From NCBI GenBank assembly GCA_035627915.1, contig DASPKT010000427.1, positions 1 to 63,051 of the forward strand: 63,051 bases of DNA. Direction: 5' to 3'. Position 1 is the first letter of the stretch. Each line of letters opens with the position of its first letter. Origin of the DNA: Azospirillaceae bacterium (GTDB lineage: Bacteria > Pseudomonadota > Alphaproteobacteria > Azospirillales > Azospirillaceae). Both the position numbers and the translations under genes were made by a program. Of the stretch, positions 25,089 through 47,075 are shown piece by piece. Under the pieces are notes generated by a model. It saw only the letters and a program-made list of their open reading frames with translations. It did no database searches and was not told the DNA's origin.

Positions 25089-25154
25089 GGCCGTATCATA
25101 GCCTGCGGGCTATGCGCCGATCAATAGCCTCTAGGCTATATGTGGCGGCGCCCC

Positions 25155-26513
25155 TCAGAACCGCAGCGTGAACACGGTCCCGCCGCCGTCGGCGTCCGAG
25201 ACGCCGATGGTGCCGCCGTGGGCCAGCATGATCTGGCGGCAGAGCGACAGGCCGACGCCGGAGCCCTCGCGCTTGGTGGTGAAGAAGGGGACGAAGATCT
25301 TGTCGGCGACCTCGGGCGGGATGCCGGGGCCGTTGTCGGCGACCGACAGGATGACGCGGCCGTACTCGTCCAGGTGGGCGGCGACGCGGATGGCGGCGCC
25401 CTCGCGCCCCGCCAGCGCCTCCGCGGCGTTCTTCACCAGGTTGATCAGCACCTGGTCCAGCATGTCGGCGTCGGCCAGCACCTCCAGGCTGGGCGGCAGG
25501 ACCAGCGTGTCCAGCGCCACCCCGCGCTCCGCCAGCGCCGGGCCCATCAGCTTCTCCAGCCGCTCCATCATGTCCTTCAGGCGGAACCGCTCCATCTGCG
25601 GGCGCGGCACCTGGGTGAACTGGCGGTAGCGCTCCACGAAGCGCAGCAGCCCGCCGGCGCGGCGGGTCACCGTGTCCATCGCCTCCGCCACGTCGTTGAG
25701 GTCTTCGGCCAGGTCCTGCCTGTCGGCCAGCCGCTCCCGCAGGTCGCCCAGCAGCGACTGGGCGGTGCGGGCCAGCGAGGAGACGGGGGTCAGCGAGTTC
25801 ATCATCTCGTGCGTCAGCACCCGCACCAGGTCGTGCCAGGCGCGCACCTCCGTCGCCTCCAGCTCGCCCCCGATGTTCTGGAGGGAGACCAGCATGCGCG
25901 ACTCGCCGCCGATGGTCATCTGGGTCGCCTGGACGGTCAGCTGCTGAAGCCCCGGGCCGCCCACCACCTTCACCAGCCGCCGCTCCCCCGGCTTCAGGGT
26001 GCGCAGCGCGTCGGCGACGGTGCCGCCCTCGTCCAGCCGGCGGATCAGGTCCTCGTGCCCCAGCAGCTTGCGCGCGGCGTTGTTCAGCAGCTCCACCCGG
26101 CCGTCGGGGAAGACGGCGGCCAGCGCCACCGGCACGTGCTCCACCAGCACGTTCAGGTAGTCGGCCTGCTGCTCCTTGTCGGCGCGGGTGGCGCGGAACT
26201 TCTCCAGCACGCCGGAGAAGGCGGTGCCCAGCTCGTCGAAGGCGGTGCCGAGGCCCCGCATGGAGAAGCTCTGCTGGAAGTCGGAATGGGCGATGGCGGT
26301 CAGGAAGCGCGACAGCTCCCGGTTCGTCGTCTGCACCACCCGCAAGAGCCCGCCGATCTGAAGCAGCAGCGCCACCGCGACCAGGAACGCCGTCGCCCGG
26401 TACTCGGTGGCGACCAGCAGGATGCCCAGCAGCATGGAGGTGAGCGCCAGCAGCGCCACCCGGATGGTGACGTTCAGCTCGAACCGGCGTGCGCCGACAC
26501 GCTCAAAGCCCAT
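25155..26513 (-). CDS. Sensor histidine kinase with two closely spaced TM helices, a PAS-like region, HisKA and HATPase_c
   Basis: H-box is LTHEMMNSLTPV, N-box is LINLVKNAAEA, and G-boxes are DNGPGI and GSGVGLSL. The N-terminus has TM1 (TIRVALLALTSMLLGILLVA), a loop of only TEYR(A), then TM2 (TAFLVAVALLLQIGGLLRVV). Its start overlaps the regulator stop by 11 nt. Confidence 0.85.
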   Translation of the reverse strand: MGFERVGARRFELNVTIRVALLALTSMLLGILLVATEYRATAFLVAVALLLQIGGLLRVVQTTNRELSRFLTAIAHSDFQQSFSMRGLGTAFDELGTAFSGVLEKFRATRADKEQQADYLNVLVEHVPVALAAVFPDGRVELLNNAARKLLGHEDLIRRLDEGGTVADALRTLKPGERRLVKVVGGPGLQQLTVQATQMTIGGESRMLVSLQNIGGELEATEVRAWHDLVRVLTHEMMNSLTPVSSLARTAQSLLGDLRERLADRQDLAEDLNDVAEAMDTVTRRAGGLLRFVERYRQFTQVPRPQMERFRLKDMMERLEKLMGPALAERGVALDTLVLPPSLEVLADADMLDQVLINLVKNAAEALAGREGAAIRVAAHLDEYGRVILSVADNGPGIPPEVADKIFVPFFTTKREGSGVGLSLCRQIMLAHGGTIGVSDADGGGTVFTLRF

Positions 26514-27921
26514 GCTTTTCCATCCGGCGGTAAAGGGAGGCGCGGGTGATGCCGAGCTCGTCCGCGGTGTGGCTGATGTTGCCGGCGTGCTTCTCCAGCG
26601 CGCGGCGGATCACCTCGCGCTCCACCGCCTCAAGGTCCAGCGTCTTCAGGCTGAGCTCGCCGTCCGCGGCCGGGGCCGCGGCGGGGGCGGCGGCCGGCGC
26701 CGGGGCCGGCTGGCCGCCGGTGGAGGGCAGGGAGAAGTCCTCCGCCTCCAGCACGTCGGCGCCGGACAGGATCATCGCGCGCTCCACCGCGTGGCGCAGC
26801 GCGCGCACGTTGCCGGGCCATCGGTAGCTCATCAGCCGTTGCAGCGCCTCCGCCGAGACGCGCTTGCGCGGCATGTTGTACTTGCGGGCGTAGATGCCGA
26901 TGAAATGCTCCAGCAGGGCCGGGATGTCGTCGGGGCGGTCGCGCAGGGGGGGCAGGTTCAGCTCCACCGTGTTGACGCGGTAGAGCAGGTCCTGGCGGAA
27001 CATGTCCTCGCGCTGCAGCTGCTCCACCGGCATGTTGGTGGCGCAGATCAGGCGCACGTCGATGGGGATCGGCTTGTTGCCGCCGACGGGGAGCACCACC
27101 CGCTGCTCCAGCACCGACAGCAGCTTGCTCTGGAGGTAGAGGGGCAGGTTGCCGATCTCGTCCAGGAACAGGGTGCCGCCCTGGGCGGCGACGAAGCGGC
27201 CGATGCGGTCGTCCTTGGCGTCGGTGAAGGCGCCGCGCTTGTGGCCGAACAGCTCGCTCTCGAACAGCGTCTCCGCCACCGCACCCAGGTCGACCGAGAC
27301 GAAGACCTGGTCGGCGCGGCGGGAGCGGCGGTGGATCTCCCGCGCGATGACCTCCTTGCCGGTGCCGTTCTCGCCCAGGATCAGGACGTTGGCGTCGGTG
27401 GGGGCGGCGCGGTCGACCAGGTCCAGCACCCGGCGCATGACCGGGGAGCTTCCCACCAGCGAGGTCGGCGGGCCGTCCAGCGCCGCCGTCAGCTCCTTGT
27501 TGCGGGCCCCCAGGTGCGCCGCCTCGCGCCGGGACGCCGTCAGCTTGATGGCGGACAGCAGCGTCGCCACCAGCCGCTCGTTCTGCCAGGGCTTCAGCAC
27601 GAAGTCGGTGGCGCCCTGCTTCATCGCGTCCACCGCCGTGCCGACGTCGCCGTAGGCGGTGATGAGGATGACCGACAGCGTGGCATCGATCTCCAGCACC
27701 TTCTTCAGCCACTGGAACCCCTCGCGCCCGGTGTTGGCGCCGATGGCGAAGTTCATGTCCAGCAGCACCGCGTCGAAGGCGTTCTCCTTCAGCAGCACCG
27801 GGATGCGGTCGGGGCGGGATTCCGTGTGGACGGCGATGCCCTCTCGCTTCAGCAGCAGGCGGGCGGCGATCAGGATGTCCTCGTCGTCGTCCACCATCAG
27901 GACGCGGCCGGCGGTGGCCAT
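26503..27921 (-). CDS. Sigma-54-dependent response regulator (NtrC-family enhancer-binding protein)
   Basis: Receiver domain (VLMVDDDEDIL...DAVLLDMNF...KP). AAA+ domain with Walker A GENGTGKE, a GAFT loop variant (GHKRGAFTDA) and ESELFGH. C-terminal Fis-type HTH (NISHTADELGITRASLYRRM). Confidence 0.9.
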   Translation of the reverse strand: MATAGRVLMVDDDEDILIAARLLLKREGIAVHTESRPDRIPVLLKENAFDAVLLDMNFAIGANTGREGFQWLKKVLEIDATLSVILITAYGDVGTAVDAMKQGATDFVLKPWQNERLVATLLSAIKLTASRREAAHLGARNKELTAALDGPPTSLVGSSPVMRRVLDLVDRAAPTDANVLILGENGTGKEVIAREIHRRSRRADQVFVSVDLGAVAETLFESELFGHKRGAFTDAKDDRIGRFVAAQGGTLFLDEIGNLPLYLQSKLLSVLEQRVVLPVGGNKPIPIDVRLICATNMPVEQLQREDMFRQDLLYRVNTVELNLPPLRDRPDDIPALLEHFIGIYARKYNMPRKRVSAEALQRLMSYRWPGNVRALRHAVERAMILSGADVLEAEDFSLPSTGGQPAPAPAAAPAAAPAADGELSLKTLDLEAVEREVIRRALEKHAGNISHTADELGITRASLYRRMEKHGL

Positions 27922-27976
27922 GGTCGGTCGTGCTCGTGTCGTGGAAGGGGCGTCGTGGAAAGGGCGTCGGGGGCGG

Positions 27977-28005
27977 TGTCCGGATGCGGACAGGGCAACT
28001 GTCCG
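27977..28005. promoter_or_regulatory. Candidate enhancer (UAS): TGTCCG-GATG-CGGACA palindrome plus an overlapping GGACAG-N5-CTGTCC
   Basis: A 16-bp palindrome lies at 27977-27992, and a third TGTCCG half-site at 28000-28005. It sits ~100 bp upstream of a sigma-54 -24/-12 element. The same 16-mer occurs as its reverse complement at 33428-33443. Confidence 0.55.
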
Positions 28006-28089
28006 ATATCGTACATCTGCACGGAAGCGAACGCATCCATTTTCGGCCGCATCCGGTCAGGAACCCAGGATTTCCGCGGCTTCCCGATC

Positions 28090-28104
28090 TGGCACGCCCC
28101 TTGC
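28090..28104 (+). promoter_or_regulatory. Sigma-54 (-24/-12) promoter TGGCAC-GCCCC-TTGC
   Basis: cTGGCACGccccTTGCc matches YTGGCACG-N4-TTGCW with correct spacing. It lies 48 nt upstream of the small-ORF ATG at 28152 and next to the divergent sigma-54 EBP gene. Confidence 0.7.
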
Positions 28105-28151
28105 CATCAGGGGAACAACGGACCGACACCTTCACTCAAGGGAAGCCAGCC

Positions 28152-28298
28152 ATGACCGACATCTCCATCCAGGCCACCGACACCTTCTCCTTCGGCAGCT
28201 TCCTGCGCGACGTGGTCGCCGAGCTGGCGAACCCGACGCTGGCCGTCGCCGCCGCCTTCGCCTGCGTGACGGTGAAGATGTTCGCCGGCTTCATGTGA
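28152..28298 (+). CDS. Small (48 aa) predicted membrane peptide, unknown family
   Basis: MTDISIQATDTFSFGSFLRDVVAELANPTLAVAAAFACVTVKMFAGFM. AAGGGA lies 9-14 nt upstream of the ATG. G/C third positions are strongly preferred (about 46 of 48 sense codons by eye). The C-terminus is a hydrophobic helix. The gene is the first in a sigma-54 transcript. It is a paralogue-like counterpart of 33561..33713. Confidence 0.5.
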   Translation: MTDISIQATDTFSFGSFLRDVVAELANPTLAVAAAFACVTVKMFAGFM

Positions 28299-28357
28299 TC
28301 GGGGTCGAGTAAAGCCGGCAAACCTCCGGGCGGGGGCCCAGGGCGGGGAGGGAAGAA

Positions 28358-30811
28358 ATGTTCCAGCACTACGCGACCATGGCCTGGCGCAACCTTGCGC
28401 GCCACCGGCTGCACGCCGCGATCAACCTGCTCGGCCTCAGCGTCGGGCTGGCGGCGGCGCTGCTGATCTTCATGTATGTGCGCCACGAACTCTCCTACGA
28501 GCGGCATTTCGCCAATTCCGACCGCATCTACCGCCTGGCGACGGAGCCGCTGGAGCCGGGGCAGGGCGACGACGGGCGCAAGCACGCCCTGTCGCCGCAG
28601 CCGATGGCCGAGCTGCTGATGCAGGCCGCCGACCAGATCGGCATCGAGGCGGCGACCCGGTACGAGTTCGGGACCTTCATCCTGGCGCGGGGCGAGGCGC
28701 GCTTCTTCGAGAAGACCACCTTCGTCCACGCGGACTTCTTCCGCATGTTCGACTTCCCCTTCCGCCACGGTGACCCGGCGACGGCCCTGGCGACGCCGGA
28801 CGGGATGGTGATGTCCCGCGAGCTGGCCCAGAAATACTTCGGCGACGCCGATCCCATCGGCCAGGCCATCCTGGTCAACAACAAGCACCTGTTCCGCGTC
28901 ACCGGCGTGCTGGACGAGCCGCGCGGCCCGTCGGAGCTGGAGGGGGAGCTGTTCGTCTCCACCGCCAACCCGGTCCTGTCGCCGCCGCTGTGGATGAACC
29001 AGAACGGCCCGTCCTTCGTGATGGCGCGGCCCGGCGTCAGCCAGGCGGAGCTGCAGCGCCGCATGGACGGGGCGCTGGAGGGGCTGCTGCCGCAGCAGGC
29101 GGTCGAGGACAACGGCCGCTTCCGCGTCCTGCTGGAGCGGCTGGCCGACACCCACCTGCATTCCGGGCGCTGGGTCTTCATCAACCAGGCCCCGGCCTCC
29201 GCCGACACGGTCTACGCCATGATCGGCATCGGGCTGGCGCTGCTGGCGATGGTCGCCATCAACTACACCAACCTCTCCACCGCGCGGGCCACCCTGCGCG
29301 CAAAGGAGATCGGCCTGCGCAAGGCGCTGGGCGCCGGCCGGGCGCAGCTGATCCGGCAGTTCATCGGCGAGTCGGTGGCGCTGTCGCTGGCCGGCCTGCT
29401 GCTGGCGCTGGTGCTGGTGGAGCTGTCGCAGACGGCCTTCGCCGACCATCTCGGCATCCGCTTCATGGGCTCCCTCGTGGGCGATCCCGTGGCGCTGCTG
29501 GCAGGCCTCGCCCTGGCGCTCGGCCTCGGCCTGCTGGGCGGCGCCTATCCGGCGCTGGTGCTGAGCGGCTTCCGCCCGGCCGCGGTGCTGCGCGCCGCCC
29601 GGGTGAACGTCGGCCCGGCCTCGCGGCTGCGCCAGGTGCTGGTCGTCACCCAGTTCGCCACCGCCGTGGTGCTCGCCATCTCCACCGTCGTCGTCTATGC
29701 CCAGGCCCGCTACGGCGCCACCGCCAACCTGGGCTTCCAGCCGGAGATGCGGGTGGTGCTGTCCGGCCTCGACCGCGAGCCCGTGGTGCAGCGGCGCGAG
29801 GTGCTGCGGGAGGAGATGCTGCGCATCCAAGGCGTCACCGGTGCCGCCACCTCCTGGATCGTGCCGGGCGCCTCGGGCTCCATGGGGCGCGGGCTCAGGC
29901 GGGCCGACCAGTCGCCGGAGGACGACACCAACGTCCAGCTCTTCCGCATCGGGCACGAGTACCTGGACGTGCTGGGCGTGCGCCTGCTGGCCGGCCGCAC
30001 CTTCTCCCGCGAGGTCCCCGCCGACGTGATGCCCCCGGCCAGCCGCGGCCCTGTCACCGGTGCCGTCAACGTGGTCATCAACCGCGAGGCGGTGCGCCGG
30101 CTGGGCTTCGCCTCGCCCGAGGCGGCGCTGGGCCAGCCGCTGGTCTTCGAGGACGACAACCGCGATCCCGTCACGGTCGTCGTGGTCGGGGTCAGCGACA
30201 ACGTCCGCCAGCACAGCGCCCGCAGCGAGATCCGCCCGGCCCTCTACATCGTGGAGCAGGAGGGGGTGTACCCGCAGTCCTTCATGACCCTGACCCTGGA
30301 CGGGCGCGAGCTGGACCGGACGCTTGCCGCCATCGACGCCACCTGGCGCCGCTTCGCCCCCGACCTCCCGGTGCGCCGGCGCTTCCTGGACGACCAGCTG
30401 GAGGCCATGTACCTCCAGGACCGGCGCCTTGCCGGCGTGCTGGCGGGCTTCTCCGGCCTGACCCTGGTCATCGCCTGCCTGGGCCTGTTCGCCCTGGCCG
30501 CCAGCGAGGCGGAGCGGCGGACCAAGGAGATCGGCGTGCGCAAGGTGCTGGGCGCCGGCGTGCCCGCCCTGGTGCGGCTCATGGTGTGGCAGTTCTCCCG
30601 CCCCGTCGCCATCGCCATCCTGATCGCCTGGCCGCTCGCCTGGTGGATGATGGGGAACTGGCTGCAGGGCTTCGTCCACCGCATCCCGCTGGACCCCACC
30701 CTGTTCCTCCTGACCGGGGTGGCTACCCTGTTGGTGGCATGGATGACCGTCGCCGGTCACGCGTTCAAGGTAGCGTCGGCCAGGCCCATCCAGGCCCTCC
30801 GATACGAGTAA
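28358..30811 (+). CDS. ABC transporter permease, duplicated FtsX/MacB-type (permease 1, 817 aa)
   Basis: The N-terminal TM is MFQHYATMAWRNLARHRLHAAINLLGLSVGLAAALLIF. It has two large extracytoplasmic domains, each followed by an FtsX-type 3-TM bundle (...KEIGLRKALGA... and ...KEIGVRKVLGA...). The C-terminus is ...IQALRYE. No ATPase gene lies in its operon. Confidence 0.85.
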   Translation: MFQHYATMAWRNLARHRLHAAINLLGLSVGLAAALLIFMYVRHELSYERHFANSDRIYRLATEPLEPGQGDDGRKHALSPQPMAELLMQAADQIGIEAATRYEFGTFILARGEARFFEKTTFVHADFFRMFDFPFRHGDPATALATPDGMVMSRELAQKYFGDADPIGQAILVNNKHLFRVTGVLDEPRGPSELEGELFVSTANPVLSPPLWMNQNGPSFVMARPGVSQAELQRRMDGALEGLLPQQAVEDNGRFRVLLERLADTHLHSGRWVFINQAPASADTVYAMIGIGLALLAMVAINYTNLSTARATLRAKEIGLRKALGAGRAQLIRQFIGESVALSLAGLLLALVLVELSQTAFADHLGIRFMGSLVGDPVALLAGLALALGLGLLGGAYPALVLSGFRPAAVLRAARVNVGPASRLRQVLVVTQFATAVVLAISTVVVYAQARYGATANLGFQPEMRVVLSGLDREPVVQRREVLREEMLRIQGVTGAATSWIVPGASGSMGRGLRRADQSPEDDTNVQLFRIGHEYLDVLGVRLLAGRTFSREVPADVMPPASRGPVTGAVNVVINREAVRRLGFASPEAALGQPLVFEDDNRDPVTVVVVGVSDNVRQHSARSEIRPALYIVEQEGVYPQSFMTLTLDGRELDRTLAAIDATWRRFAPDLPVRRRFLDDQLEAMYLQDRRLAGVLAGFSGLTLVIACLGLFALAASEAERRTKEIGVRKVLGAGVPALVRLMVWQFSRPVAIAILIAWPLAWWMMGNWLQGFVHRIPLDPTLFLLTGVATLLVAWMTVAGHAFKVASARPIQALRYE

Positions 30812-30842
30812 GGGCTTGCATCCGTTCCCTGCTCGTGACCTG

Positions 30843-30880
30843 GGGCCCGTCCGGACCGCTCTCCGGACGGGCCCGTTTTC
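30843..30880 (+). terminator. Rho-independent terminator
   Basis: GGGCCCGTCCGGA-ccgctc-TCCGGACGGGCCC forms a 13-bp perfect stem and is followed by GTTTTCCTTT. It lies 32 nt after the permease-1 stop. Confidence 0.75.
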
Positions 30881-30995
30881 CTTTGGGTTCTTTGCGGGGG
30901 CGTTCCGGCCATGCCCGCCTCAGCGGCAGTGGGGGGGCGGGGACAGTCCGGCGACAGCATGTGGCCTGAGCGCTCCCGGTCCCGACACTCACCCC

Positions 30996-31134
30996 GTCAT
31001 TCCCGCGGAGGCGGGAATCCAGGCATTCAGCGTGCTATGTCCCTGGGCGGAAAGGCGCCCACGTCACCGCCGGCGCCCTTTGCCCGGGTTGGACAGCAGG
31101 CCGAATACCTGGACCCCGCCTCCGCGGGGGTGAC
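30996..31134. repeat. 139-bp REP/MITE-like element bounded by palindromic modules
   Basis: Left end GTCATTCCCGCGGAGGCGGGAATCCAGG. Right end CCTGGACCCCGCCTCCGCGGGGGTGAC. It is homologous in ends, length and internal ends to 8978..9117. Confidence 0.65.
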
Positions 31135-31169
31135 GGCAAAAGGCGCGGAGGGCGCCCCCGTCCCCTATC

Positions 31170-33335
31170 TCACCCCGGCACGCTGCGCGGGGTGCGGTGG
31201 CGGCCGGAGCGGGTGAGCTCCTCCTCCAGGGCGGCGACCAGGTCGGCGACGGCGAAGGGCTTGGGCAGGAGGCGCGCCTCGTCCTTCGGCACCAGCTCCT
31301 CGCTGTAGCCGGTCATCAGCACGACCGGCAGCAGGGGCCAGCGCTGGCGCACGATGCGCAGCAGGCCGACGCCGCTGAGCTCCCCCGGCATGACGATGTC
31401 GCTCAGCACCAGGTCCGCCTCGTCGCCGGCCTCCAGCATCCGCAGCGCCTCGTCGCCCGAGGTGGCGCGGCGCAGGCTGTAGCCGAGGTCGCCCAGGATG
31501 GCGCTCAGCATGCTGCCGACGACCGGGTCGTCCTCGACCAGCAAAATGCGGCCGCCGACCGCGTTCAGGCTGCGCCGCAGGTCGCCGCGGCCGGCCGCCG
31601 GCACCTTGTCGGAGCGCGGCAGCAGGATGGTGACCGTCGTGCCGAGGCCCTGGCGGCTGTCGATCAGGATGGTGCCGTGCGACTGGCGGGCGAAGCCGTA
31701 GGCCTGGCTGAGGCCGAGGCCGGTGCCGCCGTTCGCCTGCTTGGTGGTGAAGAAGGGCTCGAACGCGCGGGCCACCGTGTCGGGCGACATGCCGGCGCCG
31801 GTGTCCTCCACCGACAGGGCGACGTAGGCGCCGGTCAGCTCGCCCGGGTCCACGCCGGCGCTGCGGTTGGTGTTGCGCGCGCGGATGGTCAGCACGCCCG
31901 GTTCCGGCATTGCGTCGCGGGCGTTCGCCAGGATGTTGAGGATCGTGACCTCGAACTGGGTCTGGTCCACCTCGACCGTCCAGAGGTCGGGGGCGATGTC
32001 CACCTCGAGCCTGATGTCGGGGCGCAGCGTGCGCGCCATCAGCTCCGACATGGCGAGCAGCTGGTCGCGGATGGCGATCGGCTTGGGCTCCAGCGGCTGG
32101 CGGCGCGCGAAGGCGAGAAGCTGCCGGGTCAGCTTGGCGCCGCGGTCGACGGCCTGGTGCCCGGCCTGGAGCACGGGCGCCAGGCCGGCGGCGGACGCCT
32201 TGCGCTCCACCAGGGTCAGGCAGGCCGCCATGGCCTGGAGCAGGTTGTTGAAGTCGTGCGCGACGCCGCGGGTCATCTGGCCCATGGCCTCCAGCCGCCG
32301 CGCCGCCTCGTAGGCGATGTCCTGGCGGCGGCGGATGCGCAGCTCGCGCACGAACAGCCAGGCGAACAGCCCGGCCAGGGCGACGCAGAGCAGCCCGCCG
32401 CCGGCCATCAGCAGGGCGGCCTGCCGCAGCGGCGCCGCGAAGATCTCCCGGGGCAGGCCGAAATGGATGGACCAGCCGACATCCGGCAGCTTGCGGTAGA
32501 CCGAGCGCAGCGGGAACCCGTCCAGCCCGACGCTGTCGTAGAAGCCCTCCGGCTCCTCCCGGCGGACCTGGAGCACGCGGGCGCTGGCCATGGTGCCGAC
32601 CAGCGCCTCGTCGCCGCGGGTGCGGGCGACGATGTGGCCGCTGCCGTCCACCACCACGCCGATCCAGTCGGAGGGCAGCCCGTTCGCCAGCAGGATCTCC
32701 TTGAGGTGGCGGGGATCGACCACGGCGGACAGCAGGTAGCGCAGCCTTCCGTCGCGCACGACGGGCACCCGCACCGCGAAGGCCGCCCGGTTGCGCGGGC
32801 CGCGCAGGACCGTGCCGACGACCGGCGCGCCCGTGGCGACGGCGCGGGCGTGGCTCTCCAGGTCGACGACCTTGCCGGGGGCGCCGGCCACCTGCTCGGG
32901 CGCGTCGGCCAGCCGGTTGCCCTCCGGGTCGCTCAGGACCAGCGTCTTCCACAGGGGCTGGTGCGCCCGCGCCCGCTCCGCCATGGCGAAGAAGGCGGCG
33001 CGGTCGAAGCCGCCGGCGTCAACCGGCAGCGCCGCCGCCAGCATCTGCAGGCTGGCGACCTGGGCCGCCAGGTCGCCCTCCAGCCGCTGGGTCAGGTGCG
33101 CCACGCGGTTGGCGGCATCCTGCTCCATCGCCGCCTGCCGCTGTTGCAGCCAGGCGGCGCCCAGCATGACCGACAGCCCGACGATGGGCAGCAGGGCCGC
33201 CAGCGCCAGCAGGCTGAGGTGCCGCTGGGAAGAGGGACTGCCCGCGCGGCCGGACGGGGAACCGGGACGGGATCGGAGCGGCCACAAGGCGTCTGGCGTC
33301 CCTTCGCTGGATGCCGGGGCGGCGGGGAGCGGCAT
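31170..33335 (-). CDS. Hybrid sensor histidine kinase/response regulator with a periplasmic Cache-like sensor domain
   Basis: 721 aa. TM1 is followed by ~270 aa of extracytoplasmic domain, then TM2. H-box MTRGVAHDFNNLLQAM. HATPase motifs NILANARDAM, DTGAGM and GTGLGLS. C-terminal receiver (ILLVEDDPVV...DLVLSDIVMP...KP). Confidence 0.85.
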   Translation of the reverse strand: MPLPAAPASSEGTPDALWPLRSRPGSPSGRAGSPSSQRHLSLLALAALLPIVGLSVMLGAAWLQQRQAAMEQDAANRVAHLTQRLEGDLAAQVASLQMLAAALPVDAGGFDRAAFFAMAERARAHQPLWKTLVLSDPEGNRLADAPEQVAGAPGKVVDLESHARAVATGAPVVGTVLRGPRNRAAFAVRVPVVRDGRLRYLLSAVVDPRHLKEILLANGLPSDWIGVVVDGSGHIVARTRGDEALVGTMASARVLQVRREEPEGFYDSVGLDGFPLRSVYRKLPDVGWSIHFGLPREIFAAPLRQAALLMAGGGLLCVALAGLFAWLFVRELRIRRRQDIAYEAARRLEAMGQMTRGVAHDFNNLLQAMAACLTLVERKASAAGLAPVLQAGHQAVDRGAKLTRQLLAFARRQPLEPKPIAIRDQLLAMSELMARTLRPDIRLEVDIAPDLWTVEVDQTQFEVTILNILANARDAMPEPGVLTIRARNTNRSAGVDPGELTGAYVALSVEDTGAGMSPDTVARAFEPFFTTKQANGGTGLGLSQAYGFARQSHGTILIDSRQGLGTTVTILLPRSDKVPAAGRGDLRRSLNAVGGRILLVEDDPVVGSMLSAILGDLGYSLRRATSGDEALRMLEAGDEADLVLSDIVMPGELSGVGLLRIVRQRWPLLPVVLMTGYSEELVPKDEARLLPKPFAVADLVAALEEELTRSGRHRTPRSVPG

Positions 33336-33394
33336 CCTAGCCGAAAGCGCCCGGCGGCTTCACCCGCCTTGTCGGCATGGGAGGGGCGGGCGGC

Positions 33395-33450
33395 TGTCCG
33401 GTTCGGCGGGACCCTGTCCGCCGGCGCTGTCCGCATCCGGACAGTGTCCG
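33395..33450. promoter_or_regulatory. Candidate enhancer (UAS) cluster: TGTCCG-CATC-CGGACA palindrome plus three further TGTCCG half-sites
   Basis: TGTCCG occurs at 33395, 33415, 33428 and 33445. The 16-bp palindrome at 33428-33443 is the exact reverse complement of 27977-27992. It lies ~70 bp upstream of the second sigma-54 promoter. Confidence 0.55.
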
Positions 33451-33475
33451 GAAACGAACGGGGTAGATCGAACGA

Positions 33476-33488
33476 TAAGTTATTGATT
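33476..33488 (-). promoter_or_regulatory. IHF-consensus site (AATCAATAACTTA on the minus strand)
   Basis: Matches WATCAA-N4-TTR exactly. It is located between the UAS cluster and the -24 element, in the only AT-rich patch of this intergenic region. Confidence 0.45.
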
Positions 33489-33505
33489 TTGCACGCGCCG
33501 GACGC

Positions 33506-33520
33506 TGGCACGCCGCTTGC
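33506..33520 (+). promoter_or_regulatory. Sigma-54 (-24/-12) promoter TGGCAC-GCCGC-TTGC
   Basis: cTGGCACGccgcTTGCt lies 41 nt upstream of ATG 33561. It matches the 28089-28105 promoter at 15 of 17 positions. Confidence 0.7.
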
Positions 33521-33560
33521 TGATAATGCGGCGGGTAGAACACAAGAGGGGACGCCCGTC

Positions 33561-33713
33561 ATGACCGAACCGATCACCCGCACGGACACGCCCGCCACGG
33601 AGCGCACCGTCACCGAGCGCATCGAGGATGCGGTCACGTCAGTCAACCCGGACGTCTGGCTCGCCAGCGCCCTCGTGGTGGTGGTGATCCGATGCCTGGG
33701 CGGCCTCGTCTGA
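33561..33713 (+). CDS. Small (50 aa) predicted membrane peptide, unknown family
   Basis: MTEPITRTDTPATERTVTERIEDAVTSVNPDVWLASALVVVVIRCLGGLV. AGAGGGG lies 9 nt upstream of the ATG. It is hidden inside the shadow ORF 31197..33713. Its layout matches the 28152 peptide: MT(D/E) start, acidic/Thr-rich N-half, an NP motif, and a hydrophobic helix containing one Cys. Confidence 0.45.
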   Translation: MTEPITRTDTPATERTVTERIEDAVTSVNPDVWLASALVVVVIRCLGGLV

Positions 33714-33745
33714 CCGTAGTCTCGTCGAGCGGGAACGACATCAAA

Positions 33746-35005
33746 ATGGGTATGGACCGAAAGATCGAGAAGCGCTCGCGCTTCAAGCGCCAGCACCTGA
33801 TCGGCGCCGCCGTCGGCGCGCTGGCCCTGGGGGCGGCGGGCTTCATGGCCGTCGGCGGCTCCGGCGGCAGCACCGTCCGGGTGGCCGAGGAGCGGCTGGT
33901 GACGGCCGAGGTGAAGCAGGGGCAGTTCGAGGACTTCATCCCCGTCCGGGGCGCCGTGGAGCCGCTGAACAGCGTGTTCCTGGACTCGGTCGAGGGCGGC
34001 CGGGTGGAGAAGCGCTTCGCCGAGGCCGGCCAGATGGTCAAGGCCGGCCAGCCCCTGGTGGAGCTGTCCAACACCGACCTGCAGCTGGAGGTCATCGCCC
34101 GCGAGGCGCAGGTGATCGAGCAGCTGAACCAGCTCCGCACGGTGGAGCTGGGCCTCCAGACCAACCGCCTCACCAACAAGCGCGAGCTGGTGGAGGTCGA
34201 GTACAAGCTGGTGCAGCTGAAGCGCGACCTCGACCGCCGCTCGCAGCTGGTGAAGACGAACGCCGTCAGCCAGGCCCAGTTCGAGGACAGCAAGGACGAG
34301 TACGACTACTACCAGCGCCGCCGCGAGGTCCTGCAGGAGAGCATCCGCGTCACCGACGGCATGCGCACCGAGCAGTACGAGCAGCTGAAGGCCGCCACCT
34401 CCAAGCTCCAGGAGAACCTGGAGTACGCGCGCCGCAACCTGGAGAACCTGGTGGTCAAGGCGCCTGTCGACGGCCAGTTGACCCAGCTGGAGGCGGAGAT
34501 CGGCCAGACCATGCAGCGCGGCCAGCGCCTGGGCCGGGTCGACCGCATCGACGGCTTCAAGGTCTCCGCCCAGGTCGACGAGTTCTACCTGCCGCGCCTG
34601 GACGTGGGCCAGACCGCCGAGGTGCAGATGGGCTCGGCCAACACGGTGCTGCGCGTCGCCAAGATCTACCCGCAGGTCCGCGACGGCCAGTTCCGGGTGG
34701 ACCTGGAGTTCGCCGCCGAGCCGCCCAAGGACATCCGCAGCGGCCAGACGCTCCAGATGCGCCTGAAGCTGGGCGCCACCACGTCGGCGCTGCTGATCCC
34801 CAACGGCGCCTTCTTCCAGGACACCGGCGGCGACTGGATCTTCGTCGTCGGCTCCGACGGCAAGTACGCCACCAAGCGCCGCGTCCAGCTCGGCCGCCGC
34901 AACGCCCAGGTCATCGAGGTCAAGGGCGGCCTGGAACCGGGCGAGCGCGTCATCACCTCCGCCTACGGCGACATGGTCCGCATGGACCGCATCCAGCTCA
35001 ACTGA
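33746..35005 (+). CDS. HlyD/MacA-type periplasmic adaptor (membrane fusion protein)
   Basis: N-terminal TM (LIGAAVGALALGAAGFMAV), a lipoyl-like hairpin, a long coiled coil (QLEVIAREAQVIEQLNQLRTVELGLQ...) and a beta-barrel C-domain. The alternative start at 33752 is equally possible. Confidence 0.8.
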   Translation: MGMDRKIEKRSRFKRQHLIGAAVGALALGAAGFMAVGGSGGSTVRVAEERLVTAEVKQGQFEDFIPVRGAVEPLNSVFLDSVEGGRVEKRFAEAGQMVKAGQPLVELSNTDLQLEVIAREAQVIEQLNQLRTVELGLQTNRLTNKRELVEVEYKLVQLKRDLDRRSQLVKTNAVSQAQFEDSKDEYDYYQRRREVLQESIRVTDGMRTEQYEQLKAATSKLQENLEYARRNLENLVVKAPVDGQLTQLEAEIGQTMQRGQRLGRVDRIDGFKVSAQVDEFYLPRLDVGQTAEVQMGSANTVLRVAKIYPQVRDGQFRVDLEFAAEPPKDIRSGQTLQMRLKLGATTSALLIPNGAFFQDTGGDWIFVVGSDGKYATKRRVQLGRRNAQVIEVKGGLEPGERVITSAYGDMVRMDRIQLN

Positions 35006-35034: not shown

Positions 35035-35715
35035 ATGCTGAAACTCGTGAACCTGACCAAGGTCTACCGCACCGAAGAGGTGGAGACGACCGCGCTGAAT
35101 TCCGTGAACATCCATGTCAAGCACGGCGAGTTCGTCGCCATCATGGGCCCGTCGGGCTGCGGCAAGTCCTCGCTGCTGAACATCATCGGCATGCTCGACA
35201 ATCCCAGCGGCGGCGAATACTGGTTCGACGGCGAGAACGTCGCCGGCTACGGCGAGCGCAAGCTGGCCGACATCCGCAAGAAGAACATCGGCTTCATCTT
35301 CCAGAGCTTCAACCTGATCGACGAACTCACCGTGTTCGAGAACGTCGAGCTGGCGCTGCTCTACCACGACATCCCGGCGCGCGAGCGCAAGGAGCGGGTC
35401 AAGGCGGCGCTGGAGAAGGTGAACATCGCCCACCGCGAGACCCACCTGCCGCAGCAGCTCTCCGGCGGCCAGCAGCAGCGCGTCGCCATCGCCCGCGCCG
35501 TCGTCTCCAAGCCCAAGATGCTGCTGGCGGACGAGCCGACCGGCAACCTCGACAGCGCCAACGGCGACGAGGTCATGAAGATGCTGACCGACCTGAACGC
35601 CGAGGGCACGACCATCGTCATGGTCACCCACTCCATGCCGCACGCCCAGTACGCGCGCCGCATCATCAACCTGTTCGACGGCCAGGTCGTGGCCGAGAAC
35701 CTGCGCGCCGCCTGA
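35035..35715 (+). CDS. ABC transporter ATP-binding protein (MacB/LolD-type NBD)
   Basis: Walker A GPSGCGKSS, Q-loop, signature LSGGQQQRVAIARA, Walker B MLLADEPT and H-loop VTHS. Confidence 0.9.
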   Translation: MLKLVNLTKVYRTEEVETTALNSVNIHVKHGEFVAIMGPSGCGKSSLLNIIGMLDNPSGGEYWFDGENVAGYGERKLADIRKKNIGFIFQSFNLIDELTVFENVELALLYHDIPARERKERVKAALEKVNIAHRETHLPQQLSGGQQQRVAIARAVVSKPKMLLADEPTGNLDSANGDEVMKMLTDLNAEGTTIVMVTHSMPHAQYARRIINLFDGQVVAENLRAA

Positions 35716-35762: not shown

Positions 35763-38219
35763 ATGCTGCGCAACTACATCGTCACTGCGGTACGCAACCT
35801 GCTGAAGCACCGGCTCTACTCGGCGATCAACATCGCCGGGCTGGCGGTCGGGCTGGCGGCCTGCATCCTGATCGCGCTGTTCGTGCGCGACGAGTTCAGC
35901 TACGAGCGCTTCTGGCCGAAGCTGGACCGGATGCACCGGGTCGCCCTGACCTTCTACATCCCGGGCCGCGAGCCCATGATGGTCGGCGACAGCCAGTTCG
36001 TCATGGGCCCGCTGCTGAAGGAGGACTTCCCCGGGATCGAGGAGGTGGTCCGCTTCGCGCCCCAGCGCACCCTGGTGGACCGCGCCGACAACCCCGCGCT
36101 GGAGGTGCTGACCTACGCCGACCCCGGCGTCTTCCGGGTGTTCGGCTACGAGTTCCTGCGCGGCACGGCCGACGGCGCGCTGGACCGCCCCGGCACCGTC
36201 GTGCTCACCCAGCGCATGGCGCGCAAGTGGTTCGGCGACGAGGACCCGGTCGGCCAGTCCCTGAAGGTCGACGGCCAGCACCTGCTGGAGGTCACCGGCG
36301 TGGTGAAGGACCTCCCTCACAACACGCACCTGAAGTCGGTCGACTTCCTGGTCGCCATGGAGTCGAAGAGCAACCGCCTGAACAAGGAGGCGCGGGAGAG
36401 CTGGACCACCATGCAGGGGTCCACCTACGTGCTGCTGCGCGACGGCGCCTCCGCCGCCGAGGTGCAGGCCGGGCTGAAGGACTTCGTCGCCCGCCGCGCC
36501 GGCAACATCGCCCTGCCGGGCGGCGCCGTCGCCGCCACCTCCATCTTCAAGTACGACCTCCAGCCCGTCGCCGACATCCACCTGCACTCCGCCGGCTTCC
36601 AGGGCGAGGAGGACCCGGGCGACTTCGGCATGGTCATGGCCTTCGCCGGCATCGCCGTCCTGATCCTGGGCATCGCCTGCATCAACTTCATGAACCTGGC
36701 GACGGCCCGCGCCTCGGGCCGGGCGCGGGAGGTCAGCATCCGCAAGGTGGTGGGCGCCCAGCGCCGCCAGATCGTGGCGCAGTTCCTGGGCGAGTCCGTG
36801 GTCGTCACCCTGCTGGCGCTGGTCATCGCCGTCGCCCTGGTGGAGCTGGCGCTGCCCTGGTTCTCCGGCTTCGTGAACAAGCCGCTGGGCATCGATTATG
36901 CCGGCAGCCTGGGCGACGTGGCGATGCTGGTGGCCCTGACCGTCCTGGTCGGCGTCGCCGCCGGTTCCTACCCCGCCTTCGTCCTGTCCGCCTTCAAGCC
37001 GGCGGCGGTGCTGAAGGCCAACAAGTCCTCGGCCGGCGGCGGGCGGCTGCGCGCGGTGCTGGTCGTGGTGCAGTTCGCCATCTCCATCTCCCTGATGGTG
37101 GCGACCGCCGTGGTGTACGCCCAGATGGAGTACGCGAAGTCCATGCGCCTCGGCTACGACCGGGAGCACGTGCTGGCGATCTCCGGCACCCACCGCGGCG
37201 CCGCCCGCGCGGCGATCGACAGCCTGCGCGAGGAGATCGGCAAGCTGCCGGGCGTCGTCACCGTGGCCCGCGCCGGCGGCTATCCCACGGACGGGAACGA
37301 GAACAACAACATCGTCCAGATGCCGGACAGCGATCCCAGCAACCCGCTGGTGATCGGCAACCAGAGCGCCGACGCCAACTTCTTCAAGGCGCTGGGCATC
37401 CAGACCGTGGCCGGCCGCACCTTCGACGAGAGCTTCGCCACCGACGTGCTGCCCGAAGACCCGGCGGAGGCGGCCAAGCGCCCGTCCGCCCTGGTGCTGA
37501 ACCGCGCCGCCGTGAAGCGCCTGGGCTTCGCCTCGCCGGAGGCCGCCATCGGCCAGACCTTCAAGATCGGCGTCAGCGCCGACGGGCTGTCCCCGGTGAC
37601 GGTGGTCGGCGTGGTGGACGACGTCCTCCAGGGCTCCATCCGGGCCGCGGTGAAGCCGATGATGTACTACATGGCCGACCCGTACCCCTTCCTGGTCGTG
37701 CGCCTGTCCGGCCAGGAGCTGAACGCCACGGTCAACCGGATCGACGAGACCTGGAAGCGCCTGGTCCCCGGCACGCCGATCCGCCGCACCTTCCTGGAGG
37801 ACAGCTTCAACGCCCTCTACGCGGCGGAGGAGCGGCAGGGCCAGATGTTCGCCACCTTCTCCGGCCTCGCCATCGTCATCGCCTGCCTGGGCCTGTTCGG
37901 CCTGGCCTCCTTCACCGCGGAGAAGCGCACGAAGGAGATCGGCATCCGCAAGGTGCTGGGCGCCAGCGTGCCCGAGATCGTGCGGCTGCTGGTGTGGCAG
38001 TTCTCCCGCCCGGTGCTGGTGGCGAACCTGATCGCCTGGCCGCTCGCCTGGTACGCCATGCGCGACTGGCTGGACGGCTTCGCCTACCGCGTCGAGCTGA
38101 GCCCGCTCTACTTCGCGGTGGCCGGGATCGCGGCGCTGACCATCGCCTGGGCGACGGTCGCCAGCCACGCCACCCGGGTCGCCATGACCAAGCCCTCCAG
38201 CGCCCTGCGCTACGAATAA
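35763..38219 (+). CDS. ABC transporter permease, duplicated FtsX/MacB-type (permease 2, 818 aa)
   Basis: Starts MLRNYIVTAVRNLLKHRLYSAINIAGLAVGLAACILIALFVRDEFSYE... It has two FtsX modules and ends ...SSALRYE. Confidence 0.85.
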   Translation: MLRNYIVTAVRNLLKHRLYSAINIAGLAVGLAACILIALFVRDEFSYERFWPKLDRMHRVALTFYIPGREPMMVGDSQFVMGPLLKEDFPGIEEVVRFAPQRTLVDRADNPALEVLTYADPGVFRVFGYEFLRGTADGALDRPGTVVLTQRMARKWFGDEDPVGQSLKVDGQHLLEVTGVVKDLPHNTHLKSVDFLVAMESKSNRLNKEARESWTTMQGSTYVLLRDGASAAEVQAGLKDFVARRAGNIALPGGAVAATSIFKYDLQPVADIHLHSAGFQGEEDPGDFGMVMAFAGIAVLILGIACINFMNLATARASGRAREVSIRKVVGAQRRQIVAQFLGESVVVTLLALVIAVALVELALPWFSGFVNKPLGIDYAGSLGDVAMLVALTVLVGVAAGSYPAFVLSAFKPAAVLKANKSSAGGGRLRAVLVVVQFAISISLMVATAVVYAQMEYAKSMRLGYDREHVLAISGTHRGAARAAIDSLREEIGKLPGVVTVARAGGYPTDGNENNNIVQMPDSDPSNPLVIGNQSADANFFKALGIQTVAGRTFDESFATDVLPEDPAEAAKRPSALVLNRAAVKRLGFASPEAAIGQTFKIGVSADGLSPVTVVGVVDDVLQGSIRAAVKPMMYYMADPYPFLVVRLSGQELNATVNRIDETWKRLVPGTPIRRTFLEDSFNALYAAEERQGQMFATFSGLAIVIACLGLFGLASFTAEKRTKEIGIRKVLGASVPEIVRLLVWQFSRPVLVANLIAWPLAWYAMRDWLDGFAYRVELSPLYFAVAGIAALTIAWATVASHATRVAMTKPSSALRYE

Positions 38220-38242
38220 TCCCTGGAAATCGGGAAACACAG

Positions 38243-40717
38243 ATGCTCGGGAACTACCTGACCGTCGCCTTCCGGAACCTGGTCAAGCACCGGCTCTACT
38301 CGGCGATCAACATCTTCGGCCTCGCGGTCGGCCTGGCCGCCGCGATCCTGATCCTGCTCTTCGTCCGCAACGAGCTGAACTACGACGGCTTCCACCGGGA
38401 CGCCGACCGCCTCTACCAGGTGGCGGTGGACGCCGAGATCCCCGGCCGCCCCGCCAACAAGATCTCGCGCACCATGCCGCCGGTCGGGCCGGCCATGAAG
38501 GACTACTTCGCCGAGGTGGAGGACGTCCTGCAGCTGATCCAGCAGAGCTCCGTCGTGCGGCGCGGCGGCGACGTCCAGTTCTCCGAGCAGATGATCAGCA
38601 CGACGCCGAACTTCTTCGACTTCTTCACCTACCGCTTCGTGAAGGGCGACCCGGCGCGGGCGCTGGCGGAGCCCGACTCGGTCGTCCTGACCGAGAGCAC
38701 GGCGCGCAAGTACTTCGGCGACGCCGACGCGCTGGACCAGGTCCTCACCATCGACCAGACCGACGTGCGGGTGACCGCCGTCGTCGCCGACCTGCCGCCC
38801 AACACGCAGCTGGACTTCACCATGCTGCTGAACCGGCAGTCCAAGGCCAGCCGCGCGGCGCCGTCGCTGCTGGAGAGCTGGGGCGCGCTCTGCTGCTTCA
38901 CCTACGTGAAGCTGAAGGAGGGCGCCGACGCCGACCAGGTGCGCGCCAACCTGAAGGCGTTCATGGAGGCGAAGGCCCCGGTCCAGCGCACGCCGACCGG
39001 CACCTTCAGCCCGGCCGAATCCTTCAAGCTGATGCTGCGCAACGTCACCGACGTGCACACCGACCCGATGCTGGGCGACCTGCGGCCGGGCACCAGCCGG
39101 ACGGAGATCTACATCTTCTCCGCCGTGGCGGCCCTGGTCCTGGTCATCGCCAGCATCAACTTCATGAACCTGGCGACCGCCCGCGCCACCCAGCGGGCGC
39201 GCGAGGTCAGCGTCCGCAAGGTGGTGGGCGCCAGCCGCACCCAGATCATCGCCCAGTTCATCGGCGAGTCCGTGCTGCTGACCGTGATCGGGCTGGTGCT
39301 GTCCATCGCGCTTGTGGAGCTGGCGCTGCCCTACTACTCCGACTTCCTGGGCCTGAAGCTCAGCTTCAACTACCTGTCGGACCCGGTCCTGCTGCTGATG
39401 CTGCTGGGGCTGACCCTGGTGGTCGGCACCGCCGGCGGCGCCTATCCCGCCTTCTTCCTGTCCGCCTTCAAGCCGGCGGCGGTGCTGAAGGGGGCGTCCA
39501 GCGGCACCTCGGGCGGCTCCGGCCGGCTGCGCGCGGCGCTGGTGGTGGTGCAGTTCTCCATCTCCATCGCGCTGATGACGGCCACCGCCGTGGTCTACGG
39601 CCAGCTCCTGTTCGCCACCGGCAAGGACCTGGGCTTCGACCGGGAGAACGTGGTCGTGCTGGAAGGCGTGGGCCGCCGCGACGCCCGCGACCGCCGCGAG
39701 GCGCTGATGGAGGCGCTGCGCAAGGACCCGCGCGTCGTCTCGGTGGCGTCGGGCAGCGTCATGCCGGGCGACGGGGACGAGAGCAACACCGGCATCCGCC
39801 TGCCGGGCGGCGACCCCAACGACAACCTGACGCTGCGCAATGACAGCGTGAACTACGACTACTTCCGCACCATGGGCATGCGGCTGGTGGCCGGCCGCGA
39901 CTTCGACCGGGAGCGGGGCGGCGACGCGCTGGTCCGCCCGGCGACGCCGCCGACGGCCGAGAACCCGCAGGTGCTGAAGGGGGCCGCGGTGGTCAACCGC
40001 TCCGCCGTCGCCCGGATGGGCTTCGCCTCGCCGGAGGCGGCGCTGGGCCAGACCTTCCAGGCCGGCGACGCCCCCAACAGCTCGCTGGAGCTGACCATCG
40101 TCGGCGTGCTGGAGGACTTCCACTACCGCTCCGTCACCGACCCGATCGCCGCCGGCTTCTTCTACATCGACCCGGCCGACCAGACGCAGGTGGCGGTGCG
40201 GATCAAGGGCGGCGACGTGCCGGGCGCGCTCTCCTTCGTCGACCGCACCTGGAAGGAGGTCTATCCGGACCTGCCGCTGCGCCGCCAGTTCCTGGACGAG
40301 CGCCTGCAGCAGCTCTACGAGCGCGAGCGCACCACCTCGGAGATGTTCGCCGCCTTCTCCGGCCTCGCCATCGTGATCGCCTGCCTGGGCCTGTTCGGCC
40401 TGGCCTCCTTCACCGCGGAGCGGCGGACCAAGGAGATCGGCCTGCGCAAGGTGCTGGGCGCCAGCGTGTCCGACATCGTGCGGCTGCTGGTCTGGCAGTT
40501 CAGCAAGCCGGTGCTGGTGGCGAACCTGATCGCTTGGCCGATCGCCTGGTACGGCGCGTCGCGCTGGCTGGAGGGCTTCGCCTACCGCATCGACCTCAGC
40601 CCGCTGATCTTCCTGGGCGCAGGATTCGCCGCCCTGCTGATCGCCTGGGCCACGGTCGGCATGCACGCCACCCGGGTGGCGGCGGCGAAGCCGGTGACGG
40701 CCTTGCGCTACGAGTGA
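38243..40717 (+). CDS. ABC transporter permease, duplicated FtsX/MacB-type (permease 3, 824 aa)
   Basis: ATG at 38243 (MLGNYLTVAFRNLVKHRLYSAINIFGLAVG...) lies inside track ORF 36227..40717, whose first 2 kb is a shadow frame. The protein ends ...VTALRYE. Confidence 0.85.
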   Translation: MLGNYLTVAFRNLVKHRLYSAINIFGLAVGLAAAILILLFVRNELNYDGFHRDADRLYQVAVDAEIPGRPANKISRTMPPVGPAMKDYFAEVEDVLQLIQQSSVVRRGGDVQFSEQMISTTPNFFDFFTYRFVKGDPARALAEPDSVVLTESTARKYFGDADALDQVLTIDQTDVRVTAVVADLPPNTQLDFTMLLNRQSKASRAAPSLLESWGALCCFTYVKLKEGADADQVRANLKAFMEAKAPVQRTPTGTFSPAESFKLMLRNVTDVHTDPMLGDLRPGTSRTEIYIFSAVAALVLVIASINFMNLATARATQRAREVSVRKVVGASRTQIIAQFIGESVLLTVIGLVLSIALVELALPYYSDFLGLKLSFNYLSDPVLLLMLLGLTLVVGTAGGAYPAFFLSAFKPAAVLKGASSGTSGGSGRLRAALVVVQFSISIALMTATAVVYGQLLFATGKDLGFDRENVVVLEGVGRRDARDRREALMEALRKDPRVVSVASGSVMPGDGDESNTGIRLPGGDPNDNLTLRNDSVNYDYFRTMGMRLVAGRDFDRERGGDALVRPATPPTAENPQVLKGAAVVNRSAVARMGFASPEAALGQTFQAGDAPNSSLELTIVGVLEDFHYRSVTDPIAAGFFYIDPADQTQVAVRIKGGDVPGALSFVDRTWKEVYPDLPLRRQFLDERLQQLYERERTTSEMFAAFSGLAIVIACLGLFGLASFTAERRTKEIGLRKVLGASVSDIVRLLVWQFSKPVLVANLIAWPIAWYGASRWLEGFAYRIDLSPLIFLGAGFAALLIAWATVGMHATRVAAAKPVTALRYE

Positions 40718-40725
40718 TCCGCAGC

Positions 40726-40761
40726 GGGGCGCCCCTCCCCGGGCAGGGGGAGGGGCGCCCC
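40726..40761 (+). other. GC-rich 15-bp perfect stem-loop between permease genes 3 and 4
   Basis: GGGGCGCCCCTCCCC-gggcag-GGGGAGGGGCGCCCC. No U-tract follows, so it is not called a terminator. Confidence 0.5.
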
Positions 40762-40794
40762 CGATCTCAACCGGCGGCCCGGGGGGCTGGCGCC

Positions 40795-43242: not shown

Positions 43243-43274
43243 ACGACGAACAGACGTCCTGGGGGATGCCCGCC

Positions 43275-47063: not shown

Positions 47064-47075
47064 GGCTGCGTTCCT

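Follow-up and report, generated by a model that had tools for sequence, protein, structure and literature searches.

A predicted sigma-54-dependent control region with a phased palindromic enhancer upstream of a MacB/FtsX-type efflux operon in an Azospirillaceae bacterium

The sigma-54 promoters served by activators of the NtrC/DctD/ZraR/AtoC type (glnAp2, dctA, zraP, atoDAEB) carry tandem dyads upstream of a TGGCAC-N5-TTGC element, and their bacterial enhancer-binding proteins (bEBPs) combine a receiver (REC) domain, an AAA+ domain and a Fis-type helix-turn-helix (HTH) domain and are paired with a partner kinase. We analysed a region of the same build, termed P2 (33415-33520, plus strand), in contig DASPKT010000427.1 of an Azospirillaceae bacterium; the whole stretch of DNA that was analysed, 63,051 nt with 73% G+C, is called the window, and expected motif counts are given for the whole window. 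On sequence and comparative grounds we regard positions 33428-33520 as very probably the control region of a sigma-54-dependent, bEBP-activated operon for a MacB-type ATP-binding cassette (ABC) efflux system. Since its architecture is the classical one of NtrC, DctD and NifA promoters, P2 is a fresh case of a familiar promoter type, and it shares with the NtrC family an activator gene divergent from its target in the ancestral layout. It differs from that family in its TGTCCG-N4-CGGACA operator, in an activator loop reading GAFTDA instead of GAFTGA, in its MacB/FtsX efflux target, and in an enhancer that is unusually close and strictly phased, the dyad starting 60-90 bp from the -24 element.

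The same natural GAFTDA loop variant occurs in OrpR (DVU2106) of the Desulfovibrio vulgaris orp operons, which is experimentally sigma-54-dependent and dependent on integration host factor (IHF; PMC4641369, PMC3897727). OrpR differs from the regulator considered here in being a single-component redox sensor of cell-division-related operons, with an unrelated operator and sensing domain. On the transporter side, MacAB-TolC, the darobactin exporter DarBCD and the ADOP family, which is essentially unstudied in the literature searched, share with the P2 operon an adaptor of the HlyD type, a separate ATPase of the MacB class and permeases that contain MacB_PCD and FtsX domains. The present system differs from them in family scores below the cutoffs and in five paralogous permeases per ATPase; no outer-membrane factor was found among the scanned flanking genes, and no radical-SAM or precursor cluster in the window. 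In the BceRS-BceAB systems of Firmicutes, too, a two-component system (TCS) governs an ABC transporter of the FtsX family; the kinase has two transmembrane helices but lacks an extracellular sensor domain, and BceS senses through its FtsX-type transporter. BceR, however, is an OmpR-type regulator working with sigma-70, whereas here we find a sigma-54 bEBP, a periplasmic adaptor (a tripartite, Gram-negative arrangement) and duplicated 800-aa permeases; the resemblance to Bce is best taken as an analogy only.

A link between sigma-54 and such pumps has been reported from a promoter scan, in which predicted -24/-12 sites are enriched upstream of COG0577 FtsX-type permeases in Gammaproteobacteria, Opitutia and Bacteroidia, a link termed a previously unrecognised axis there (PLoS One 2025 e0327805, PMC12316311). 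The passages of this study that term searches retrieved describe no activator family, operator, phasing, kinase layout or microprotein (PMC12316311). Such pumps are not mentioned by Francke et al. 2011 or in the D. vulgaris regulome paper, and the literature searched in full text, outside of which many subscription papers lie, yielded no experimental description of the activator, the operator or the regulon.

Elements of P2 and their conservation

P2 had originally been predicted to contain TGTCCG half-sites at 33395, 33415, 33428 and 33445 and a CGGACA at 33438, and all of them are present, the last at 33438-33443. Two of these half-sites form the exact palindrome TGTCCGCATCCGGACA at 33428-33443, enhancer or upstream activator sequence (UAS) site I, which lies 78 bp before TGGCACG, start to start. 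The degenerate site II, TGTCCGGAAACGAACG, with two mismatches, occupies 33445-33460 with its centre 17 bp from that of site I, and the TGTCCG at 33415-33420 (plus strand) may provide an auxiliary activator contact. The -24/-12 element that had been claimed at 33506-33520 was recovered as TGGCACGCCGCTTGC on the plus strand (GG at 33507-33508, GC at 33519-33520), and the slightly longer CTGGCACGCCGCTTGCT at 33505-33521 fits YTGGCACG-N4-TTGCW with the GG and GC dinucleotides 10 bp apart. From its end it is 40 nt to the start codon of the first gene, sp2; the predicted transcription start falls near 33531-33533, and no sigma-70-like promoter was detected in a scan of 27800-34000.

The window contains a twin of this region, P1, at 27977-28104 (plus strand), with one exact palindrome (27977-27992), one with a single mismatch (28000-28015) and the -24/-12 element TGGCACGCCCCTTGC at 28090-28104. 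A match of the two 17-nt cores at 15 positions had been proposed; this holds for CTGGCACGCCGCTTGCT against CTGGCACGCCCCTTGCC and becomes 14 of 17 if the register begins at T. Counting the motifs in the window, we found 46 copies of the TGTCCG hexamer against 44.6 expected, and because this is the chance frequency isolated half-sites carry little weight. The exact 16-bp palindrome TGTCCG-N4-CGGACA, by contrast with its expectation of 0.00, occurs twice (27977 and 33428), and exact TGGCAC-N5-TTGC likewise occurs twice (28090 and 33506; 0.13 expected), both copies being intergenic and oriented toward downstream genes.

For footprinting, four related loci (L001-L004) were retrieved with the adaptor protein of the operon, to which their adaptors are 64-89% identical; they belong to an Azospirillaceae metagenome-assembled genome (MAG), Oleisolibacter, Niveispirillum and a Rhodospirillaceae MAG. 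The dyad is kept in all four, in L003 with one mismatch at the upstream site, and TGGCACG-N4-TTGC is invariant in the window and in L001-L004. The start-to-start spacing between the two elements is 77-79 bp in the four orthologues, and the DNA between them has diverged. P2 as a sigma-54 promoter with an upstream palindromic enhancer has therefore passed the conservation test proposed with the original prediction, both dyad and -24/-12 element being kept in four of four syntenic loci. The multi-site character of the UAS was not supported as a conserved feature. Only site I is universal. The position of site II is a full or one-mismatch palindrome in L002, L003 and L004, so that two palindromes abut in these loci, 17 bp from centre to centre, and it has decayed to two mismatches each in the window and L001. 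The 33415 half-site (CTGTCCG) is kept in three of the five sequences, namely the window, L001 and L002 and not L003 and L004, and the one at 33395 is conserved in none of the orthologues. P1 is conserved in L001.

Phasing, gene linkage and the cognate regulator

The promoter type was then sought in metagenome contigs with the pattern TGTCCG-N4-CGGACA, 44-74 bp, TGGCACG-N4-TTGC. It is present in at least 119 contigs spanning 37-73% G+C; the figures below apply among the matches listed, base counts to 103 dereplicated promoters and phasing to 103-105. The motif pair itself is fixed by the search pattern, and therefore only spacing, flanks and gene content are independent evidence. The palindrome starts only at -60 to -62, -66 to -70, -76 to -81 (with a single case at -83) and -85 to -90 from the promoter, that is, with peaks near -61, -67, -78 and -89, of which the -78 of the window is the modal value. 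For periods of 9.5-10 the Rayleigh R is about 0.6 (103-105 dereplicated promoters, p about 1e-17). Positions that were not selected by the pattern fit the sigma-54 consensus, with Y before TGG in 76 of 103 promoters and W after TTGC in 83; W-W stands at the centre of the palindrome in 85-89 of the 103. In most family loci the first gene starts 3-80 nt after the -12 element.

Gene content points in the same direction. Adaptor, ATPase or FtsX-permease genes of the MacA/MacB type follow the promoter in 66 of the 85 contigs with at least 1 kb of downstream sequence, and several of the remaining contigs have a TolC, HlyD or recurrent protein-isoaspartate-methyltransferase (PCMT)-like gene there. 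An activator gene is found in cis in at least 25 contigs, divergently upstream in 14 and at the end of the operon in 11. All 35 cis-linked activators (L001-L117) have G(A/S)FTDA as their loop, a hallmark of the family, and the 28 with an alignable C-terminal end have a conserved recognition helix, with the HTH pattern GNIS..A..LG.[ST]RA.LYR, in common. One human-gut contig encodes an activator with 88% identity to a protein of Phocaeicola vulgatus, from which it follows that the module reaches across Alphaproteobacteria and Bacteroidota at the least. That the motifs of P2 are merely juxtaposed by chance and have no regulatory role is an explanation that could appeal to the background frequency of TGTCCG, but the composite elements are far above chance, conserved, phased and linked to genes, and the comparative data effectively refute it.

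As side observations on the targets, promoters with the dyad and the -24/-12 element also precede PCMT-like genes (L011, L089, L091, L101, L113) and, in L023 and L046, a TolC/OEP gene followed by the activator gene; because TolC genes lie behind this promoter type, the regulon may extend to an outer-membrane channel.

In the window, the gene for the candidate cognate bEBP lies at 26503-27921 on the minus strand, and its product contains Response_reg, Sigma54_activat (4.5e-63), AAA_lid_14 and HTH_8 domains (Pfam). It scores below the NCBIfam cutoffs for AtoC, NtrC, ZraR and PrsR alike. The sigma-54 contact loop is GAFTDA (residues 228-233), which retains F and T of GAFTGA, and is compatible with promoter remodelling since OrpR of D. 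vulgaris, a proven sigma-54 activator, carries GAFTDA as its loop (PMC4641369); the effect of the loop variant is left open for VfmH in one paper. The gene at 25155-26513 (minus strand) encodes the candidate cognate histidine kinase, with PAS and HATPase domains and two adjacent N-terminal transmembrane helices without a periplasmic domain (transmembrane calls in this work are crude hydropathy scans). Most of the kinases linked in cis to family promoters (L006, L017, L033, L047, L065, L075 and others) have the same two adjacent N-terminal helices and no periplasmic domain, an intramembrane-sensing arrangement reminiscent of BceS.

The orthologous loci differ in layout. The orthologous promoter of L002 and L004 has the kinase-activator operon directly on its divergent side and drives a small open reading frame (ORF), the adaptor, the ATPase and a set of two or three permeases. 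The same system is split into P1 and P2 in the window and L001, with P1 adjoining the activator. In the ancestral layout the gene for the REC-AAA+-HTH activator is divergent and beside the enhancer. We infer binding of the activator to the dyad from this cis-linkage in L002, L004 and the at least 25 metagenome contigs, and the assignment of the activator to P2 rests on P1, the orthologous layouts and the identity of the motifs.

Several observations weigh against this assignment and against P2 as a bEBP-driven promoter. The activator gene is 5.5 kb from P2 in the window, the promoter of L003 has no activator gene within 10 kb, and site II is degenerate in the window; moreover, the metagenome loci were chosen by the motif pair itself, and many of the contigs may be phylogenetically related. 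Genes for rpoN and ihf were not noted in the window, where no search aimed at them was made.

A different regulator was also considered for the dyad, either NifA, whose UAS is TGT-N10-ACA, or a repressor. The spacing of TGTCCGCATCCGGACA formally fits the NifA consensus, TGT/ACA half-sites are common to several activator motif groups (PMC4641369), and, as at nifH-type promoters, the window has an IHF consensus between UAS and promoter. But P2 differs from NifA promoters in the REC-type phospho-control of its regulator, where NifA has a GAF domain, in a specificity half-site TGTCCG, in an IHF site that is not conserved, and in its gene content, with efflux components in place of nif or fix genes downstream. 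TGTCCG is invariant and travels in cis with one REC-type GAFTDA activator family from Alphaproteobacteria to Bacteroidota, and strict helical phasing to the -24 element suits an activator and not a repressor. We consider this alternative very improbable, and the NifA reading was rejected on gene content.

With the local response regulator as the activator of P2, established knowledge of bEBPs and sigma-54 suggests the following course of events. Sigma-54 RNA polymerase would bind TGGCACGCCGCTTGC (33506-33520) and be held there as a closed complex until, upon an inducing signal, the membrane-embedded kinase (25155-26513) phosphorylates the REC domain of the NtrC-family regulator (26503-27921). 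The phosphorylated activator would occupy the dyad at 33428-33443, helped by the weaker flanking sites at 33445-33460 and 33415, and its oligomer, about 78 bp upstream, would contact the polymerase from a fixed helical face and open the promoter at the expense of ATP. The transcript, from about 33532, would encode a tail-anchored 50-aa microprotein, the periplasmic adaptor, one ABC ATPase and four FtsX/MacB permeases, together forming an envelope efflux or export pump. The twin promoter at 28090 would bring a second microprotein and a fifth permease into the same regulon, providing five alternative permeases.

The IHF site and the divergent hybrid kinase

Two further claims concerned the surroundings of the core elements. 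The first was an exact WATCAA-N4-TTR consensus for IHF at 33476-33488 on the minus strand, and such a sequence, AATCAATAACTTA, does exist within an AT-rich patch; it is the sole match in 63 kb (0.02 expected) and is ideally placed, its centre preceding the predicted transcription start by about 50 bp. As a part of the promoter design it did not stand up to comparison. The consensus is absent from all four orthologues L001-L004, the closest of which, with 89% adaptor identity, has GC-rich sequence at that position, and among these five sequences the AT-rich patch is found in the window only.

The full model originally put forward, in which IHF bends the DNA at 33476-33488 so that an enhancer of five half-sites reaches the polymerase, can nevertheless draw on several observations: this one exact consensus sits in an AT-rich patch between UAS and -24 element in a 73% GC genome, the loop of about 77 bp is short, which favours a bending protein, and sites with at most one mismatch show a roughly 7-fold enrichment in this spacer when the whole family is taken, being present in the 60 bp before -24 in 15% of its promoters compared with 2.3% of windows drawn at random from the same contigs. 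Yet most of these sites are on the plus strand of low-GC contigs at a constant offset of -19, differing from the window site in offset and orientation, and one of the five half-sites, that at 33395, is not conserved. In view of the missing orthologous sites the model as a whole seems to us a serious possibility that falls somewhat short of probable. A more modest role, in which a short, phase-locked loop receives optional, lineage-specific help from IHF, is plausible here though not something we would lean towards; in that case IHF at 33476-33488 would bend the short intervening DNA in this genome as an accessory.

Two other sequence features were noticed in the same spacer. A WATCAA-N4-TTR-like element lies 6 nt upstream of TGGCACG on the plus strand, at the -19 offset, in L010, L028, L035, L053, L063, L064, L095, L103, L104, L110, L119 and L120, mostly low-GC members of the family, and may represent a site for IHF or an HU-type protein or some other conserved element. 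A GGAWTTCCG-like motif occurs at 28066-28078 in P1 of the window and 15-30 bp upstream of TGGCACG in L002, L003 and L004, in each case just before -24; the orthologous P2 promoters that have it lack the IHF patch.

The second claim linked the control region to the divergent hybrid histidine kinase gene at 31170-33335 (minus strand), whose product has HisKA, HATPase and REC domains (Pfam) and a periplasmic domain of about 245 aa. If the enhancer also controlled this gene, the kinase would be part of the circuit. The half-sites are indeed 60-115 bp from its start codon at 33335, as had been stated, and divergent autoregulated pairs of TCS and target are common, the cognate pair at P1 being so arranged. 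The kinase, however, is not syntenic in L001-L004: its position is taken by small single-domain receiver ORFs in L001, by a POT-type transporter gene in L003 and by the activator gene itself in L002 and L004. In addition, no -24/-12 element faces the kinase and no sigma-70-like site was detected in 27800-34000. Shared control is therefore unlikely, the linkage was rejected on synteny, and the hybrid kinase is probably a neighbour and not part of the module.

Efflux genes, microproteins and the wider module

The P2 operon continues on the plus strand from sp2 (33561-33713) with a gene for a periplasmic adaptor of the HlyD/MacA type (33746-35005; Pfam HlyD_3, HlyD_D23), whose true start is likely at 33752 (MDRKIEK), the MDR start being conserved. 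It is followed by the gene for an ABC ATPase of the MacB/LolD/FtsE class (35035-35715; ABC_tran) and by four tandem duplicated FtsX/MacB permease genes at 35763-38219, 38243-40717, 40795-43242 and 43278-45749 (MacB_PCD, and FtsX twice), the paralogues being 43-49% identical to the first copy (tblastn). With its HlyD-family adaptor, its ATPase of the MacB class and its permeases containing MacB_PCD and FtsX, the operon has these parts of a MacAB-type system; no outer-membrane factor (TolC/OEP) was found among the scanned genes flanking the cluster. The best NCBIfam matches all remain below the curated cutoffs, with DarC for the adaptor (221 against 450), DarD for the ATPase (about 281-282 bits against 375) and ADOP for the permeases (300-314 against 622; DarB 137 against 700). 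Downstream of the operon lie genes for a pyridoxal phosphate (PLP)-dependent enzyme and a PIN toxin, mfd and cox genes.

The P1 unit (28152-30874, plus strand) comprises sp1, a 48-aa ORF (28152-28298; third-position GC 0.98) that is a diverged sp2 paralogue conserved in L001, the fifth duplicated FtsX/MacB permease gene (28358-30811) and a predicted intrinsic terminator at 30843-30874 with a strong 13-bp GC-rich hairpin and a T-tract. This terminator sits between the convergent permease and hybrid-kinase genes. Taken together, the five permeases of the window (28358-30811 and 35763-45749) have 817-824 aa, are 37-49% identical to each other and are accompanied by a single ATPase and a single adaptor; the related loci have 2-4 tandem permease copies. 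Probable toxin-antitoxin pairs were noted on both flanks of the cluster, a Gp49/HigB-like gene with an HTH antitoxin at 24422-25109 and a gene for a PIN-domain toxin preceded by a small ORF at 46818-47498, both on the minus strand. Plasmid origin was also considered; a search of a plasmid collection gave only short matches of at most 77% identity, so that this is not a known plasmid locus.

The first cistron of P2, sp2, encodes a microprotein of 50 aa whose transmembrane helix is C-terminal, and is preceded by a Shine-Dalgarno-like AGAGGGGA; its third-position GC is 0.90. L001-L004 keep its NPD(V/L)WL motif, its hydrophobic tail and its stop codon while showing synonymous changes; the corresponding ORFs lie at 4618-4776 and 9792-9938 (L001), 9840-9974 (L002), 9832-9972 (L003) and 1997-2164 (L004). 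As a group, these first cistrons behind sigma-54 promoters encode 44-55 aa, with NPD(V/L)WL followed by a hydrophobic tail in a C-terminal transmembrane helix. A homologue search with sp2 returned three proteins, including sp2 itself, the sole named one being 'hypothetical', and no Pfam domain was found; the motif was also not found at the at least 119 motif-selected metagenome loci. The microproteins constitute a new family confined to Azospirillaceae and other Rhodospirillales relatives. An attenuation leader peptide was rejected for this 5' ORF because its amino-acid sequence is preserved through synonymous changes, its GC content at third positions is 0.90 and there is no terminator behind it, and a riboswitch or leader RNA in the 5' region was discarded as an Rfam scan gave no RNA family anywhere in the window.

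Beyond P2 itself, we tentatively suggest, as one possibility among others, that P2 belongs to a so far undescribed 'sigma-54 Bce-like' module shared across phyla, with an intramembrane-type kinase, a GAFTDA activator, a phased enhancer and MacB/ADOP multi-permease pumps, and with TolC or PCMT targets in some genomes. In such a module the pump might take part in sensing, and sp1 and sp2 might be pump or sensor subunits.

The analysis provides a concrete operator, TGTCCG-(N-W-W-N)-CGGACA, a spacing rule and a candidate cognate regulator family for MacB/FtsX-type ABC pumps, whose link to sigma-54 had, within the literature searched, previously been only statistical (2025). The tight phasing at 60-90 bp offers a clean natural system for studying contact between enhancer and sigma-54 polymerase with and without IHF. 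The range of the module extends from soil Azospirillaceae to Phocaeicola-like gut Bacteroidota, and owing to this cross-phylum reach one set of experiments could annotate hundreds of operons. Study of the module might also reveal the export substrate of the duplicated-permease arrays.

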